Shown: in pieces, positions 39,015-61,768 of the stretch
How positions within the stretch are numbered: position 1 is the first letter of the stretch
Layout of the letters: each line of letters opens with the position of its first letter
Assembly (NCBI GenBank): GCA_902599655.1
Contig: CACKGC010000005.1
Location: 3,175-67,174 of the forward strand
Source of the DNA: an uncultured Fidelibacterota bacterium
Lineage (GTDB): Bacteria > Fidelibacterota > Marinisomatia > Marinisomatales > Marinisomataceae
Direction: 5' to 3'
DNA: 64,000 nucleotides
Translations under genes and position numbers: made by a program
The notes under the pieces: generated by a model
The model's input: only the letters and a program-made list of their open reading frames with translations
Databases searched by the model: none
Told to the model about the DNA's origin: nothing

Positions 39015-39944
39015 CTAAAGATTCAATCTGTTTCCACGCTGTGCGATATTAAAGTCGTTATCAATGATATTTTGAAATTCATTTGAGCTTTTATCTAGCG
39101 CAGGATTAGTATGATTTAAATGGATAAAATAAATAGAATCTTTTTTATCAGAATATTTAAATAATTTCATTGTTTCAACAATGAAAGGATGAGGAATTTG
39201 TGACATATCTCTACCAGGAAGTTCATTTATATCGTAGAAAGTTCCATCTAATAAACTGTAGTCTGAATTTTCAACAATATCTATAATATCTGTCTGCCAT
39301 TTACTCCATTTATCAATATCTGGGATGAAAACTAAAGATTTTGATGGTCCTTCTATTTTGAAACCCACTGTTTCAGAAAATTCATCCCTATGAGGAACTT
39401 TAAATGGAATAATAGATAATCTTGAATTTAGTTGAACTTTTTTATTGTCACTTAAACTTGATAAGGAAATATTCTTTAAATCAACCAGCTGGCTCCAAGG
39501 ACCATTATTTCTTAAAAAACTTTCCATTTTAGGCATGACATTAACTACAGTACTTTTTGCACCCATAACCTCTCTTCCTAAATGCATCAATCCAGTATAA
39601 TGTCCAATATGAGCATGCGTTAAAAAAATTCCTTTAAGTTCTCTTTTATTGTTATTGGTTAACAAATGTAACTGTTCAGCAAAATCAGGTGTTGCATCAA
39701 TCATCCAAACTTCATTTGAAACAGGGTCGACAATACCAATGCTTGAGACTTTGTTATGAAGATTTGGATCGTTCCATTTATTAATACAACAAGTTTTTTC
39801 GCAGGCTGCATGAGGAGCACCACCGTCTTGTGCAATTCCCAAAATAACGACATATGGCTGCTCTTTTATATAGGTAAAGCTATAAAATAGCGATGAAATC
39901 GATAAAACTAATAATAACCTAACCACCAAGCTGAAGTTCATCAT
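39015..39944 (-). CDS. MBL-fold metallo-hydrolase (PqqB-like)
   Basis: LTHAHIGHYTGL metal-binding motif. N-terminal hydrophobic segment. Confidence 0.75.
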   Translation of the reverse strand: MMNFSLVVRLLLVLSISSLFYSFTYIKEQPYVVILGIAQDGGAPHAACEKTCCINKWNDPNLHNKVSSIGIVDPVSNEVWMIDATPDFAEQLHLLTNNNKRELKGIFLTHAHIGHYTGLMHLGREVMGAKSTVVNVMPKMESFLRNNGPWSQLVDLKNISLSSLSDNKKVQLNSRLSIIPFKVPHRDEFSETVGFKIEGPSKSLVFIPDIDKWSKWQTDIIDIVENSDYSLLDGTFYDINELPGRDMSQIPHPFIVETMKLFKYSDKKDSIYFIHLNHTNPALDKSSNEFQNIIDNDFNIAQRGNRLNL

Positions 39945-55897: not shown

Positions 55898-56644
55898 ATG
55901 TTACAAAATTTTGAATCATTAGTTCTTATTTGGCTGGGTATAGGCTTTATTACCTTTATTACCCTGTTAAAAATTCCAGCTCCATATGGAAAATTTTCAA
56001 AAACTAATTGGGGTCCAATGATTCCAAGTAAACTTGGATGGATAGTAATGGAAATTATTTCACCTCTTGCCTTACTGTATTTCTTTTTAAATGGAAATAT
56101 TGAAAAGACACCAACGAATATTACCTTTATCTCATTGTGGACGATACACTACTTTAACAGAAGTGTTATTTATCCCTTAAGACAGAATAATCCTGCTCAA
56201 ATGCCGCTTCTTATTGCAGTGCTTGCATTCCTGTTTAATGTGATGAATGGATATATAAATGGGACTTATTTTGGTAGTATTCAGGAATATTCTGCTGAAT
56301 ACATGTCAAATTGGAATTTTATTTTAGGTGTTTGCTTATTCATCATTGGTGCATACATCAATATAAAATCTGACAATATTTTACTGTCATTACGATCTAA
56401 ATCAGGAGAATACAAAATTCCTGAAGGCTTTATGTTTAAATATGTCTCATTTCCAAACTATTTAGGAGAAATTCTCGAATGGATAGCTTTTGCTATAATG
56501 ACCTGGTCTCTTGCTGGACTGTCATTTATGATTTGGACCATGGCAAATCTCGTACCAAGAGCTATTAAGGGACATCAATGGTATCATGATAAGTTTGAGT
56601 CTTATCCAAAAAACAGAAAAGCAATATTTCCATTTATTATTTAA
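55898..56644 (+). CDS. 3-oxo-5-alpha-steroid 4-dehydrogenase (steroid 5-alpha-reductase) family membrane protein
   Basis: Polytopic, with YKIPEGFMFKYVSFPNYLGEILEWIAF near the C-terminus. Confidence 0.78.
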   Translation: MLQNFESLVLIWLGIGFITFITLLKIPAPYGKFSKTNWGPMIPSKLGWIVMEIISPLALLYFFLNGNIEKTPTNITFISLWTIHYFNRSVIYPLRQNNPAQMPLLIAVLAFLFNVMNGYINGTYFGSIQEYSAEYMSNWNFILGVCLFIIGAYINIKSDNILLSLRSKSGEYKIPEGFMFKYVSFPNYLGEILEWIAFAIMTWSLAGLSFMIWTMANLVPRAIKGHQWYHDKFESYPKNRKAIFPFII

Positions 56645-57129
56645 AATTCTTTTTTCTTCTGTCTTTTTTTAAAAAAATATTCTTGAAGTAACGCAAGGGA
56701 TTCACCTGCAAGCAAATTTCCTCGAACTACAGCAGGTGTATTTAAACTAACATTACCACAAATTTCAAATTTTGAACCACAAGCTCCATAATCTTCATCA
56801 TAACAACCAAAATATAAAAACTCAATTCGACTATTAACTATCGCCCCTGCGCACATTGGGCAAGGCTCTTTTGTAACATACATGGTGCACTCATTTAATC
56901 TCCAGTCTCCTATGGTGTTTGAAGCTGCGGTAATAGCTAACATTTCAGCATGGGCTGTTGCATCATTTAGTGAATTGCATTGATTATAACCCTGGCCAAT
57001 AATTTTGCCTTTATGTACTACGATAGCTCCGACCGGAACTTCATCCTCAAGCATAGCTTTTTTAGCTAATTGTAGGCATTTTCTCATCCAGTCTTCATGG
57101 GAATTTTGTGTTAGATTGATTTCAGACAT
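56641..57129 (-). CDS. tadA: tRNA adenosine(34) deaminase
   Basis: HAEMLAI and PCPMCAGA zinc motifs. N-terminus MSEINLTQNSHEDWMRKCLQLAKKA parallels the E. coli TadA N-terminus. The ORF track start at 57159 (TTG) runs into the tRNA gene and is rejected. Confidence 0.9.
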   Translation of the reverse strand: MSEINLTQNSHEDWMRKCLQLAKKAMLEDEVPVGAIVVHKGKIIGQGYNQCNSLNDATAHAEMLAITAASNTIGDWRLNECTMYVTKEPCPMCAGAIVNSRIEFLYFGCYDEDYGACGSKFEICGNVSLNTPAVVRGNLLAGESLALLQEYFFKKRQKKKEF

Positions 57130-57132
57130 TAG

Positions 57133-57206
57133 TACGCCCGGAAGGACTTGAACCCACAACCTTCTGGTCCGTAGCCAGACGCTCTATCCAATTGAGCTAC
57201 GGGCGC
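57133..57206 (-). tRNA. tRNA-Arg (anticodon ACG)
   Basis: Hand-folded as GCGCCCG-TA-GCTC-AATTGGATA-GAGC-G-TCTGG-CTACGGA-CCAGA-AGGTT-GTGGG-TTCAAGT-CCTTC-CGGGCGT-A. It has G1-U72 and one U-U mismatch in the T stem. No encoded CCA. Confidence 0.82.
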
Positions 57207-57230
57207 ATATGTAAAACAGATTGGAACTTA

Positions 57231-58100
57231 TTAATCAAACGCGAGAGCTTCAACCTGATAAACTTTTTTATTATTTTGCCCAGCTCCGTCAAATTGAACA
57301 AAAGCAACCAAATTTAAGTCTTGAACATTCCAACTAACTCCAGAATCATTAGGCCAATTACTATCCATTGTCCAGTTAAACACTTTATTTAATGTTTCCC
57401 CAGCTCCTAGATTAATAGTATCAAAATAGACTTGCTGACCGTCAATGATATTTCCACTTAAAAAATCGACAAATGTTTGATCAAATACAGTTTGTCCATT
57501 TGGTGCATTATATGTTGAATTGTCATGAGTAACAGCAACATAAAGCTTAAATCCTGAAACATCACTTATATCAGCGGATGAAGTTACTCGAACATTTCCA
57601 CTAATATTATAACCATTTCTTGATCCACTTATATCAATTTTAAAAAAGGTAGATTGATTTATAGCTGCTCTTGCATTAGTTCTCCATGTAGTTGCAGTTC
57701 CGGCAGAATCAACATTGCCATTTGTATACATATGAGGAACATATCCAACGTCATAATAAGCTTCTCTATTGATAACTGGTGCTTGATTCCAATCATAGTA
57801 TGGATCCCCAGATGATGGCCACCATACATGATATCTTAAAATAATCCATTCATCAGCCAAGTCGCCAGCATACACAGAAGATGTCGGATCTAGATATCGA
57901 TTTAAAGTTGTATTTTGTGGCAAACATGGACCACAAGTAGTAGAAGTAAACAACTCCATTAAAATCTTAGAATCGTAGACAATTGCGTTACTTCCACCCT
58001 CATTATTGTTTTCAGTAGTAGCAGTAACATTGCTGCCTTCTTTACCACAAGAAAGCAATATAAATAGTCCTAAAATATATATTTTGAAAATTTTATCCAT
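57231..58100 (-). CDS. Lipoprotein with thioredoxin-like TCGPC motif (possibly Omp28-related)
   Basis: Lipobox LLSC. ELFTSTTCGPCLPQN. Family guess is from memory only. Confidence 0.55.
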   Translation of the reverse strand: MDKIFKIYILGLFILLSCGKEGSNVTATTENNNEGGSNAIVYDSKILMELFTSTTCGPCLPQNTTLNRYLDPTSSVYAGDLADEWIILRYHVWWPSSGDPYYDWNQAPVINREAYYDVGYVPHMYTNGNVDSAGTATTWRTNARAAINQSTFFKIDISGSRNGYNISGNVRVTSSADISDVSGFKLYVAVTHDNSTYNAPNGQTVFDQTFVDFLSGNIIDGQQVYFDTINLGAGETLNKVFNWTMDSNWPNDSGVSWNVQDLNLVAFVQFDGAGQNNKKVYQVEALAFD

Positions 58101-59801: not shown

Positions 59802-60270
59802 AAATTACCTGCTCAATAATATTTTTAATTTCAACTTCATCTCCAATATTAAAACCTCTTTTTCTATAAATAATTTGATTATTTTTTGTGATTAGAGTTA
59901 ATGGAATTGGTTGAGCATTAAATGATCGCGAAAGTTTTTGATTGTAGTCCATAACGATATGATATTTATTATCAATGGGATATTTTTTTGTATTTACTAA
60001 TCTTTTTACTTTTGCAATTTCACCAGCTTTATCAGTGTTAATTAGGATAACAGATAAATTTTCATAATCTTTAACAAAAACATTAATCTTATCAATTTCT
60101 TTTATACAAGGAAGACACCAAGTAGCCCAAAAACTTATCAAAGTTACTTCACTAGTTAAATTAATTAAATTGCTTGATTGATTATTTAAAAGCTTTACAG
60201 GATAGTTAGGTAGATTATCTTGAGGAAACAAATTGCAAACAAGTAGACAAAATAAAATTATTTTTTTCAT
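59794..60270 (-). CDS. TlpA/ResA-like thiol:disulfide oxidoreductase
   Basis: Signal peptide plus the FWATWCLPC thioredoxin motif. Confidence 0.85.
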   Translation of the reverse strand: MKKIILFCLLVCNLFPQDNLPNYPVKLLNNQSSNLINLTSEVTLISFWATWCLPCIKEIDKINVFVKDYENLSVILINTDKAGEIAKVKRLVNTKKYPIDNKYHIVMDYNQKLSRSFNAQPIPLTLITKNNQIIYRKRGFNIGDEVEIKNIIEQVIFE

Positions 60271-61679
60271 TCAACTTCTGAAAGTGTATGCCTTAACCTA
60301 ATTTGACAGATATCTTTTCCTAATAATAGAATTAAATCAAAAATTCCAGGTCCGAAAGGTATACCACTAAGAGCCACTCTGATAGGTTTCATTACTTGTC
60401 CAATAGCTACATCATGTTGCTCCATTAGATTTTCAAAAATGTTTTCTAGCTCTACCCTGGACCAATTTTCAATTGAGGTTAAAGCGGATTTGAAATCTTT
60501 AATTATTGCAATAGACTTATCATTGTAGGTTTTGCTCAATAAATCAGAATCATAATCTAATTTGTCAGTAAAAAATATTTCAGACATAGATGCAATTTCG
60601 GTAATTGTTTTAGATCTATCTTTTATTAATTTTACAACTTCCTTCAAATATTCCCATTCTAAACCATCTCCCCATCCCGAGTTTAAAGCATAAATTTCAT
60701 TCATTAAATCTCTCACGCTCATTTCTGATAAATGTTGTTGAGAAATCCATAATAATTTCTTTTCATCAAAAACGGCTGATTTTTTTTGTACTTGTTTGAA
60801 TTGAAAGCTATTAATCAGTTCATTTTCATCAAAAATTTCCTTGTCTGAATCTGGATTCCAACCTAAAAGAGATAGATAATTTAATATCACCTTAGAAGTA
60901 AACCCTTTCTCTTTATACTCCTGAACATTGGTTGCTGCATGCCTTTTGCTTAATCTTTTTTTATCAGAACCTAAGATCATTGGTAAGTGTGCAAAAATTG
61001 GAACATCTAACTCTAATGCCTTATATACTAGTATTTGTTTAGGAGTATTTGCTAAGTGATCATCACCTCTGATAACGTGAGAAATTTTCATATCTGCATC
61101 GTCAACTGCTACAACAAAGTTATAAGTTGGCGATCCATCAGAACGAGCAATAATAAAATCGTCTAGATCTTTATTTTGAACCTTTATAGAGCCATATACG
61201 AGATCATTAAATTCGGTTTCACCTTTTGGAACTTTAAGTCTTACAGTAAAAGATTTTCCCTCTTCAATTAATGCTTTTTCTTTTTCAGGAGATAAATTCC
61301 TAAATGTTTGAGGTACACGAAAAATTTCTTTTCTTTGTTCAGACTCTTTTCTGAGGTTATCTAATTCTTCTTTTTGAAGAAAACACTTATAAGCTGTTCC
61401 ATCTTTAAGCATTTTAGCAACCATTTCCTGATGTCTGTCATTATTTTTTGATTGCAAGACAATATCTTCGTCCCAATTTAACCCTAACCACTTTAGCGCA
61501 TCCGTAATTTGATCTATATACTCATCTTTGGAACGTTCAAGGTCGGTATCTTCAATTCTTAAAAGAAATTTACCATTATTTTGTTTAGCAAATAGCCAAT
61601 TGAAAAGAGCTGTTCTGGCGCCACCGATATGTAAATATCCAGTTGGACTTGGAGCGAATCTTACTCGAGGATTCTTCAT
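60267..61679 (-). CDS. gltX: Glutamate--tRNA ligase
   Basis: MKNPRVRFAPSPTGYLHIGGARTALFNWL (HIGH) and KLSKR (KMSKS). The ORF track start at 61790 reads through the tRNA-Ser gene and is rejected. Confidence 0.93.
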   Translation of the reverse strand: MKNPRVRFAPSPTGYLHIGGARTALFNWLFAKQNNGKFLLRIEDTDLERSKDEYIDQITDALKWLGLNWDEDIVLQSKNNDRHQEMVAKMLKDGTAYKCFLQKEELDNLRKESEQRKEIFRVPQTFRNLSPEKEKALIEEGKSFTVRLKVPKGETEFNDLVYGSIKVQNKDLDDFIIARSDGSPTYNFVVAVDDADMKISHVIRGDDHLANTPKQILVYKALELDVPIFAHLPMILGSDKKRLSKRHAATNVQEYKEKGFTSKVILNYLSLLGWNPDSDKEIFDENELINSFQFKQVQKKSAVFDEKKLLWISQQHLSEMSVRDLMNEIYALNSGWGDGLEWEYLKEVVKLIKDRSKTITEIASMSEIFFTDKLDYDSDLLSKTYNDKSIAIIKDFKSALTSIENWSRVELENIFENLMEQHDVAIGQVMKPIRVALSGIPFGPGIFDLILLLGKDICQIRLRHTLSEVE

Positions 61680-61681
61680 TG

Positions 61682-61768
61682 CGGAGGCAAGAGGATTCGA
61701 ACCTCTGAAGGGCTTGCACCCTTGCTGGTTTTCAAGACCAGTGCATTCAACCGCTCTGCCATGCCTCC
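61682..61768 (-). tRNA. tRNA-Ser (anticodon UGA)
   Basis: GGAGGCA acceptor pairs perfectly with TGCCTCC. Anticodon stem-loop CTGGT-CTTGAAA-ACCAG. Long variable arm. T-arm GAGGTTCGAATCCTC. Discriminator G. No encoded CCA. Confidence 0.9.

Follow-up and report, generated by a model that had tools for sequence, protein, structure and literature searches.

How is a bacterial gene expressed when a tRNA gene ends three nucleotides (nt) before its start codon? The question is raised by a 64,000-nt stretch of DNA from an uncultured Fidelibacterota bacterium of the family Marinisomataceae (assembly GCA_902599655.1, contig CACKGC010000005.1, positions 3,175 to 67,174 of the forward strand), hereafter the window, in which tRNA-Arg(ACG) is directly followed by tadA, the gene for the deaminase that edits this tRNA. 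An earlier note on the window had drawn attention to this junction, and the abutment of the two genes was confirmed in our analysis. In the reading we favour, to which we give about an even chance, the two genes could form a unit of their own, from which excision of the tRNA would yield a nearly leaderless tadA message. The features of the junction, in window coordinates, are:

57133-57206, minus strand: tRNA-Arg(ACG), 74 nt up to the discriminator A57133, found by ARAGORN and by Rfam RF00005
57132, minus strand: C74, the first and only base of CCA to be encoded
57130-57131, minus strand: TA, the two bases that separate C74 from the start codon
56641-57129, minus strand: tadA, tRNA adenosine(34) deaminase, 162 codons plus stop, with the ATG at 57129-57127

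Read along the minus strand, the discriminator A57133 is followed by C-T-A (57132-57130) and then by the ATG, exactly the distance of 3 nt that the earlier note had claimed. The tRNA gene scores 62.8 bits on RF00005, well above the gathering score of 29, with model positions 1-71, i.e., the full model, matched over 57133-57206, and ARAGORN agrees with Rfam on the tRNA-Arg(ACG) identity. Two non-canonical pairs in the T-stem are flagged by Rfam. The anticodon loop, CUACGGA, presents the U33-A34-C35-G36 context, and ACG within such a loop is reportedly the recognition element of TadA, as described by Wolf, Gerber and Keller in 2002. As the note had further stated, CCA is not encoded, C74 alone being present. 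The last 12 bases before the ATG belong to the acceptor stem (CCGGGCGTACTA), with CCGGGC at positions -12 to -7, and therefore neither a Shine-Dalgarno (SD) sequence nor a -10 box has room there, the former as the note had recognized.

The downstream product was identified as TadA by the NCBIfam equivalog NF008113, with a narrow pass (152.6 bits, cut-off 150; residues 8-160 on profile positions 4-156), and by alignment to E. coli TadA 1Z3A (residues 8-160 against 6-158, E 3e-37). The zinc-binding and catalytic motifs HAE and PCxxC are intact, and H60, A61, E62, P89, C90 and C93 are invariant among 15 aligned orthologs. At the N-terminus, QNSHEDWMRKCL aligns opposite the N-terminal stretch of E. 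coli TadA, with SHEDWMR opposite SHEYWMR, so the parallel that the note had drawn is correct. Its claim that the start cannot lie further downstream is upheld by residues 8-14, which find their counterparts in E. coli TadA as well as in the family profile. In TadA from nine other families of the order, the start is located 8-12 residues before the invariant Met15. No further in-frame ATG, GTG or TTG was found from the tRNA to the conserved SHEDWM. As judged from these alignments, the ATG at 57129-57127 is the sole possible start of tadA. A mechanical open reading frame (ORF) call of 172 amino acids (aa) runs back through the tRNA to TTG 57159, inside its T-arm, which is the annotation trap of which the note had warned.

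The same layout was found throughout the genus, whose members are streamlined marine SAR406/Marinimicrobia with genomes of 0.7-1.1 Mb. At all 21 same-genus loci compared, tRNA-Arg(ACG) lies immediately upstream of tadA, the distance from the discriminator to the start codon being 3 nt at 19 loci, 5 nt at one and 7 nt at one, in relatives that are phylogenetically non-independent. The start codon is ATG at 17 and GTG at four of these loci, always followed by a Ser codon (TCN). Three more loci of the genus have the same layout, which brings the total to 24 same-genus genomes with tadA. Five other genomes of the genus gave no tadA match; contigs break at the locus in two of them (G004, G007) and neither the tRNA nor tadA was found in three (G009, G018, G262), so that a loss cannot be inferred. 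Furthermore, about 45 marine contigs of low GC content, returned by a metagenome scan with the 23-mer of the tRNA 3′ end, share this layout. The 3′ half of the tRNA is identical at all genus loci. The two bases after C74 vary (TA, AA, AC, TC, GA), with a spacer length of almost always 2, and the N-terminal tail of TadA is variable in length among relatives, with the frame kept. Some metagenome contigs hold additional sequences between the two genes: L232 and L235 carry an insert of about 255 nt with a 57-aa ORF inside, the end of which in L232 overlaps the tadA start by 8 nt, and L244 carries an insert of about 500 nt with two small membrane-protein genes preceded by clear SD sequences. Adjacency and spacer, for which the earlier note had proposed a synteny survey, are kept in the genus, and none of 30 tadA loci from other classes and families of the phylum has tRNA-Arg upstream. 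On this sampling, the pairing is a derived trait that the genus has kept.

Is such an abutment peculiar to tadA? The assembly containing the window (G000; 706 kb, 81.5% complete, 32% GC) is about 93% coding, with a median same-strand gap of 0 nt, on gene calls which, here as in the SD and -10 statistics below, are longest-ORF approximations. Eight of its 20 tRNAs are followed by a long ORF on the same strand starting 2-10 nt after the discriminator:

tRNA-Ser(UGA), spacer 2 nt: gltX
tRNA-Arg(ACG), spacer 3 nt: tadA
tRNA-Met, spacer 3 nt: ilvE-like aminotransferase gene
tRNA-Leu(UAG), spacer 3 nt: gene for a 596-aa transporter, with a weak, sub-cut-off DASS-family match
tRNA-Gln, spacer 7 nt: prs
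tRNA-Val, spacer 7 nt: 203-aa ORF
tRNA-Lys(CUU), spacer 10 nt: SDR oxidoreductase gene
tRNA-Phe, spacer 10 nt: 177-aa ORF

The N-termini of the gltX, prs and SDR gene products agree with their family profiles to within a few residues. The first of these junctions is a second one within the window:

61682-61768, minus strand: tRNA-Ser(UGA), followed by C74, A and the gltX ATG
60267-61679, minus strand: gltX, encoding a glutamate-tRNA ligase of 470 aa, with its start 2 nt beyond the discriminator of tRNA-Ser (TIGR00464, 547 bits, residue 5 at profile position 3)

In a 99%-complete congener (G012), five of 31 tRNAs abut a start codon within 2-10 nt, and no such junction was found among the 23 tRNAs of a 2.3-Mb relative from another family (G035). 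In the latter, a 469-aa ORF, presumably the gltX ortholog, lies 91 nt after tRNA-Ser(TGA), compared to 2 nt here, and therefore the spacer apparently shrank in the streamlined genus. Classical junctions with SD sequences are also present in G000, namely tRNA-Thr-tuf (43 nt, AAGGAG) and tRNA-Trp-secE. With eight junctions in this genome and none in the 2.3-Mb relative, abutment is therefore not specific to tadA. In the light of this genomic comparison, the tadA junction is one product of genome compaction and no unique enzyme-substrate device. The coupling of enzyme and substrate synthesis suggested in the earlier note retains in its favour the putative two-gene unit and the recurrence of the pairing in three lineages, both discussed below, but it loses the abutment itself, which is not specific to an enzyme and its substrate. 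Such coupling is possible, but the data can be explained without it.

From where could the two genes be transcribed? The surroundings of the pair contain the following features:

57231-58100, minus strand: upstream Omp28-related lipoprotein gene, with its stop codon (57233-57231) 24 nt before the tRNA
57248-57253, minus strand: candidate -35 box TTGAAG, within the end of the lipoprotein gene, 17 nt upstream of TAAGTT
57225-57230, minus strand: candidate -10 box TAAGTT, just after the upstream stop codon and 18 nt before the tRNA
57207-57215, minus strand: 5′ leader TTTACATAT, kept across the genus and immediately preceding position +1 of the tRNA
55898-56644, plus strand: convergent gene, overlapping the tadA stop codon by 4 nt

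Owing to this overlap with the convergent gene, the transcription unit ends with tadA. On the other side, TAAGTT and TTGAAG make up a candidate promoter. A TANNNT box (TAAGTT, TAACTT or TAAATT) is kept in the non-coding gap in nearly all relatives, and the candidate -10 box resembles the TAAnTT boxes found before leaderless-type starts of G000; the conservation of TTGAAG may be due solely to the coding sequence (YQVEAL). A unit of tRNA-Arg and tadA alone seems to be the simplest reading of this layout, with read-through from the upstream operon as the alternative. A regulatory helix between the leader and the start codon was also considered and rejected: ACAU of the leader is complementary to AUGU (or GUGU) of the tadA start (57126-57129), and the helix is present in the minimum free energy (MFE) fold, but its z-score is -0.2 and the centroid keeps 2 of those pairs.

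In regard to the release of the tRNA, the earlier note had assumed an RNase Z-type cut after the discriminator, and this part of its proposal had to be replaced. A model search covering four genomes of the genus and one relative gave no TIGR02651 or NF000801 match above cut-off in G000, G005, G010 or G012 (G000 and G012 being 81.5% and 99% complete), and RNase E/G is present. Two metallo-β-lactamase (MBL) proteins were the best RNase Z-like candidates: one is PqqB-like and scored 23.6 bits, and the other, of 366 aa, has a membrane helix at its N-terminus and occurs in G005 and G012 but in neither G000 nor G010. With all model matches below threshold and no tblastn match of these two candidates in G000, RNase Z was rejected as the cutting enzyme. 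The sole RNase Z-like match in G000 is a PqqB-like MBL-fold protein of 309 aa (39015-39944, minus strand), with 95 bits on the PqqB model, below its cut-off.

Family searches found no RNase Y, RNase J, RNase PH or RNB-family (II/R) enzyme in the genus genomes; the larger relative G035 has an RNB enzyme. Present in the genus are RNase E/G (506 aa, 455 bits; the G000 gene at C1:70264-71496), a PNPase-like gene, a CCA-adding enzyme and a type A RNase P RNA with the GGU of loop 15 kept. The streamlined genus seems to possess a minimal RNase set composed of RNase E/G, the PNPase-like gene and RNase P RNA. Given that the searches returned no RNase Z gene, RNase E/G is the preferred candidate, and it would cut in the AU-rich bases after the tRNA. 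A comparable activity is known from E. coli, where RNase E makes mature tRNA-Pro 3′ ends in one step (PMC5291269).

Related to this, the base after the discriminator was found to be C in 82 of 82 distinct tRNAs of G000, G012 and G035, with the full CCA encoded in just six of them. The same C is present at tmRNA, and a C at position 75 is very rare. C74 and at least one further base precede the ATG even at the tightest junctions. It is possible that C74 is kept for pairing with the GGU of RNase P RNA, or that it marks the point of 3′ processing, with CA supplied by the CCA-adding enzyme. Pairing with the GGU motif of RNase P RNA was reportedly described by Kirsebom and Svard in 1994.

Could a message released in this way be translated? 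The claim of the note that most genes have an SD sequence does not hold for the whole genome, as an SD-like 4-mer is located at -18 to -4 before just 28-35% of the starts of G000, against a background of 12% (crude calls). These 4-mers peak at -14 to -8 and are rarest before operon-first genes. At divergently oriented genes, TANNNT boxes peak exactly at -11 to -6 from the start (22 of 106, compared to a mean of 6.5 elsewhere; Poisson P 1.4e-6), most of them being of the TAAnTT type, and in some divergent pairs the start codons are just 21-34 nt apart. Leaderless mRNAs are marked by a -10 box that ends 5 nt ahead of the ATG, and the pattern suggests widespread leaderless transcription in the genus. 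The ribosomes of this organism are probably used to starting at a 5′-terminal AUG, and in view of such leaderless competence it is credible that they would accept a processed tadA message with a leader of 0-3 nt. Over its first 63 nt, this putative mRNA has essentially no structure (MFE -2.6 kcal/mol, with an open centroid). A promoter inside the tRNA, which would produce a primary leaderless tadA mRNA, was rejected on account of the CCGGGC at -12 to -7 and of a consensus promoter scan that listed none.

The favoured reading would combine these elements in the following way. Transcription would start from the promoter just upstream of the tRNA, or arrive by read-through from the upstream operon. 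RNase P would cut the 5′ side of the tRNA, an endonuclease, most likely RNase E/G, would cut at or just after C74, and the CCA-adding enzyme would complete the 3′ end. The downstream product would be a tadA mRNA with a leader of 0-3 nt, translated from ATG 57129 by the leaderless route. The same process probably takes place at seven or more other tRNA-gene junctions of the genome, and the arrangement would have arisen as compaction removed the spacers. Tentatively, and with considerable doubt, this scheme could be extended to the whole genome: a single RNase E/G cut beside the invariant C74 would both finish every tRNA 3′ end, with the CCA-adding enzyme adding CA, and create the translatable 5′ ends of at least a quarter of the genes following tRNAs. 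Such a system would represent an independently evolved bacterial tRNA punctuation based on a different enzyme, in genomes whose search revealed neither RNase Z nor RNase Y, J, PH or II/R. In the case of tadA, production of the enzyme would thereby depend on how its sole substrate is transcribed and processed.

Several points weigh against the two-gene unit with an excised tRNA. Co-transcription, the cut and its site, the cutting enzyme, the translated species and its leaderless translation are all inferred. RNase Z, which would canonically make a clean cut behind the discriminator, was not found in the genus genomes searched, and a specificity of RNase E/G for the tRNA-Arg/tadA site is presumed. 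Exonucleolytic 3′ maturation after a more distal cut would destroy the tadA message each time. In E. coli, extra 5′ bases lower leaderless translation, and a leader of 2-3 nt may be inefficient for this route. The variants with inserts (L232/L235 and L244) indicate that abutment is not required for tadA expression, and the crudeness of the gene calls affects all the statistics based on them.

Among the alternatives, the one that survives best, although we consider it unlikely, is translation of tadA from a transcript that is unprocessed or cut at the 5′ side of the tRNA only. The tRNA would stay as a 5′ structure, perhaps a protective one, and the ribosome would load on the AU-rich unstructured start. 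About 70% of the G000 starts are without an SD-like motif, pointing to SD-independent loading as a common event, the region after the tRNA is unstructured, and the searched genomes of the genus yielded no RNase Z, the endonuclease for a clean 3′ cut. However, the small ribosomal subunit needs single-stranded mRNA around the start, and this is exactly where the acceptor stem lies, a stable helix of 7 bp that ends 4 nt ahead of the AUG. In addition, tRNA-Arg(ACG) appears to be the sole CGN-reading tRNA found and must be released in order to function, and at all eight junctions the spacers extend just 1-9 nt beyond C74.

Rather unlikely is also an explanation in which the abutment is a neutral by-product of deletion bias. 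Most transcripts would then be consumed for the tRNA, via cuts inside tadA followed by 3′-5′ trimming, and a small, inefficient fraction would yield enough TadA. Such a scenario agrees with the extreme packing throughout the genome, with the variation of spacer lengths among junctions (1-9 nt after C74), with the tolerated insertions between the tRNA and tadA, and with RNase E/G and the PNPase-like gene being the only such enzymes found. Wasteful expression is, however, an ill fit for gltX, prs and the ilvE-like aminotransferase gene, high-demand genes that share the arrangement, and the position of the start codon is kept across about 70 sequences.

A regulatory explanation appears improbable. 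TadA could bind to the anticodon loop of the precursor and tune its own translation or processing, or a shared promoter could set the ratio of enzyme to substrate. The two genes do appear to be a unit of their own, with the candidate promoter directly upstream and the convergent gene directly downstream, and the order tRNA-Arg(ACG)-tadA recurs elsewhere with spacings of 90-170 nt. It was found at 168 nt in G039, from another family of the order, at 103 nt in a metagenome-assembled genome (MAG) of Auribacterota, and at 90-110 nt in a lineage of about 52% GC detected in the metagenome scan, the TadA of which is at most 55% identical to any in the phylum. In a phylogenetically uncorrected count, two to three independent recurrences in about 100 loci look like more than chance. 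Against regulation, none of the other seven abutting tRNAs is paired with a cognate gene, and a terminator-like hairpin parts the tRNA from tadA in three contigs of the lineage of about 52% GC. The pairing, missing from the 30 other loci of the phylum, is present just once among 77 additional loci, drawn from Marinimicrobia, Verrucomicrobiota, Lentisphaerota and other groups beyond the genus. On the same two counts, an ancient, widely conserved tRNA-Arg(ACG)-tadA synteny was rejected.

These more distant loci presented some further patterns of organization. In the ~52% GC lineage (L181, L185, L192, L196, L208, L219, L222, L252), a near-identical tRNA-Arg(ACG) stands behind a TTGACT-17-TATTTT promoter. 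Its T-stem is fully paired (GAGGG/CCUUC), and the T-stem of the genus (window 57140-57160) contains a U.U mismatch and a G.U pair (GUGGG/CCUUC). In L192, an ATG in frame with tadA occurs 2 nt after C74, and at three checked loci of this lineage (L185, L196, L222) tRNA-Ala(CGC) follows tadA. Another neighbour of tadA is tRNA-Ser(CGA), located downstream of it at 13 of the 30 loci from the rest of the phylum. The order of tadA and a same-strand tRNA-Ser(CGA), sometimes tRNA-Ser(GGA), extends across Marinimicrobia and a few loci of Verrucomicrobiota and Lentisphaeria (L022, L025-L028, L030, L099, L103, L112, L113, L130, L139, L150, L257-L283), and is far more widespread than the pairing with tRNA-Arg.

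Finally, it is highly improbable that tadA starts elsewhere, since of the two candidates, TTG 57159 inside the tRNA (the 172-aa ORF, to which the frame is open) and the internal Met15 (invariant among orthologs), the former lies in a folded tRNA, has no homology support and would be out of frame in the relatives with spacers of 5 nt (L011) and 7 nt (L020), and the latter comes too late with respect to the matching residues 8-14 and to the starts in other families of the order, so that both were rejected on profile, 1Z3A, ortholog and spacer-frame evidence.

If the two-gene unit with an excised tRNA is real, abundant free-living ocean bacteria would make mRNAs, among them those of tadA, gltX and prs, by a route known from textbooks as mitochondrial, and the genus would illustrate how far streamlining can push the signals of gene expression. 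The layout of an enzyme beside its substrate is an attractive test case in view of its recurrence, with wider spacers, in unrelated lineages. For genome annotation, it is relevant that gene callers extend such ORFs into the tRNA or choose internal starts. The lineage also raises the question of how tRNAs lacking CCA are matured where RNase Z is apparently missing, and of what role the universal C74 has. In a literature search, no account was found of bacterial mRNAs that become leaderless through the processing of a tRNA, nor of a linkage between tRNA-Arg and tadA, although absence is not proven by such a search.

Three known systems offer themselves for comparison. The E. coli thrU-tyrU-glyT-thrT-tufB cluster is a tRNA-mRNA operon. 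As proposed here, a tRNA and a protein gene share one transcript in such operons and are parted by RNase E and RNase P, and RNase E can make the tRNA 3′ end. Unlike at the tadA junction, with its 3-nt CTA, C74 only and no SD, the spacer in E. coli carries an SD sequence and CCA is encoded. A further tRNA-mRNA operon of E. coli is secG-leuU (PMC2241853). Leaderless mRNAs arising by initiation at the start codon itself have been described in Actinobacteria, Deinococcus and archaea (PMC4633059, PMC3848588). With these, the putative tadA message would have in common that translation begins at or next to the 5′ end of the RNA, and the matching promoter signature is present at other genes of G000. 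It would differ in that its 5′ end would be a processed one, with a monophosphate and probably 0-3 extra bases, and in having no TANNNT box before the ATG.

The closest parallel is found in animal mitochondria, where tRNA punctuation of the transcripts was reportedly described by Ojala, Montoya and Attardi in 1981. Differences are not negligible: the organism is a free-living bacterium with an ordinary gene complement, in which just 5-8 tRNAs per genome are so placed, RNase Z/ELAC2 was not found, C74 is always encoded, and a 24-nt gap with a possible promoter precedes the tRNA. On the other hand, in both cases the tRNA abuts the coding sequence, its excision would set the 5′ end of the mRNA, the leader would be absent or a few bases long with no SD sequence, and CCA is added post-transcriptionally. 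The resemblance to mitochondrial punctuation that the earlier note had pointed out stands on direct abutment, on the missing room for a promoter or an SD sequence, and on as many as eight junctions of this kind in a single bacterial genome.

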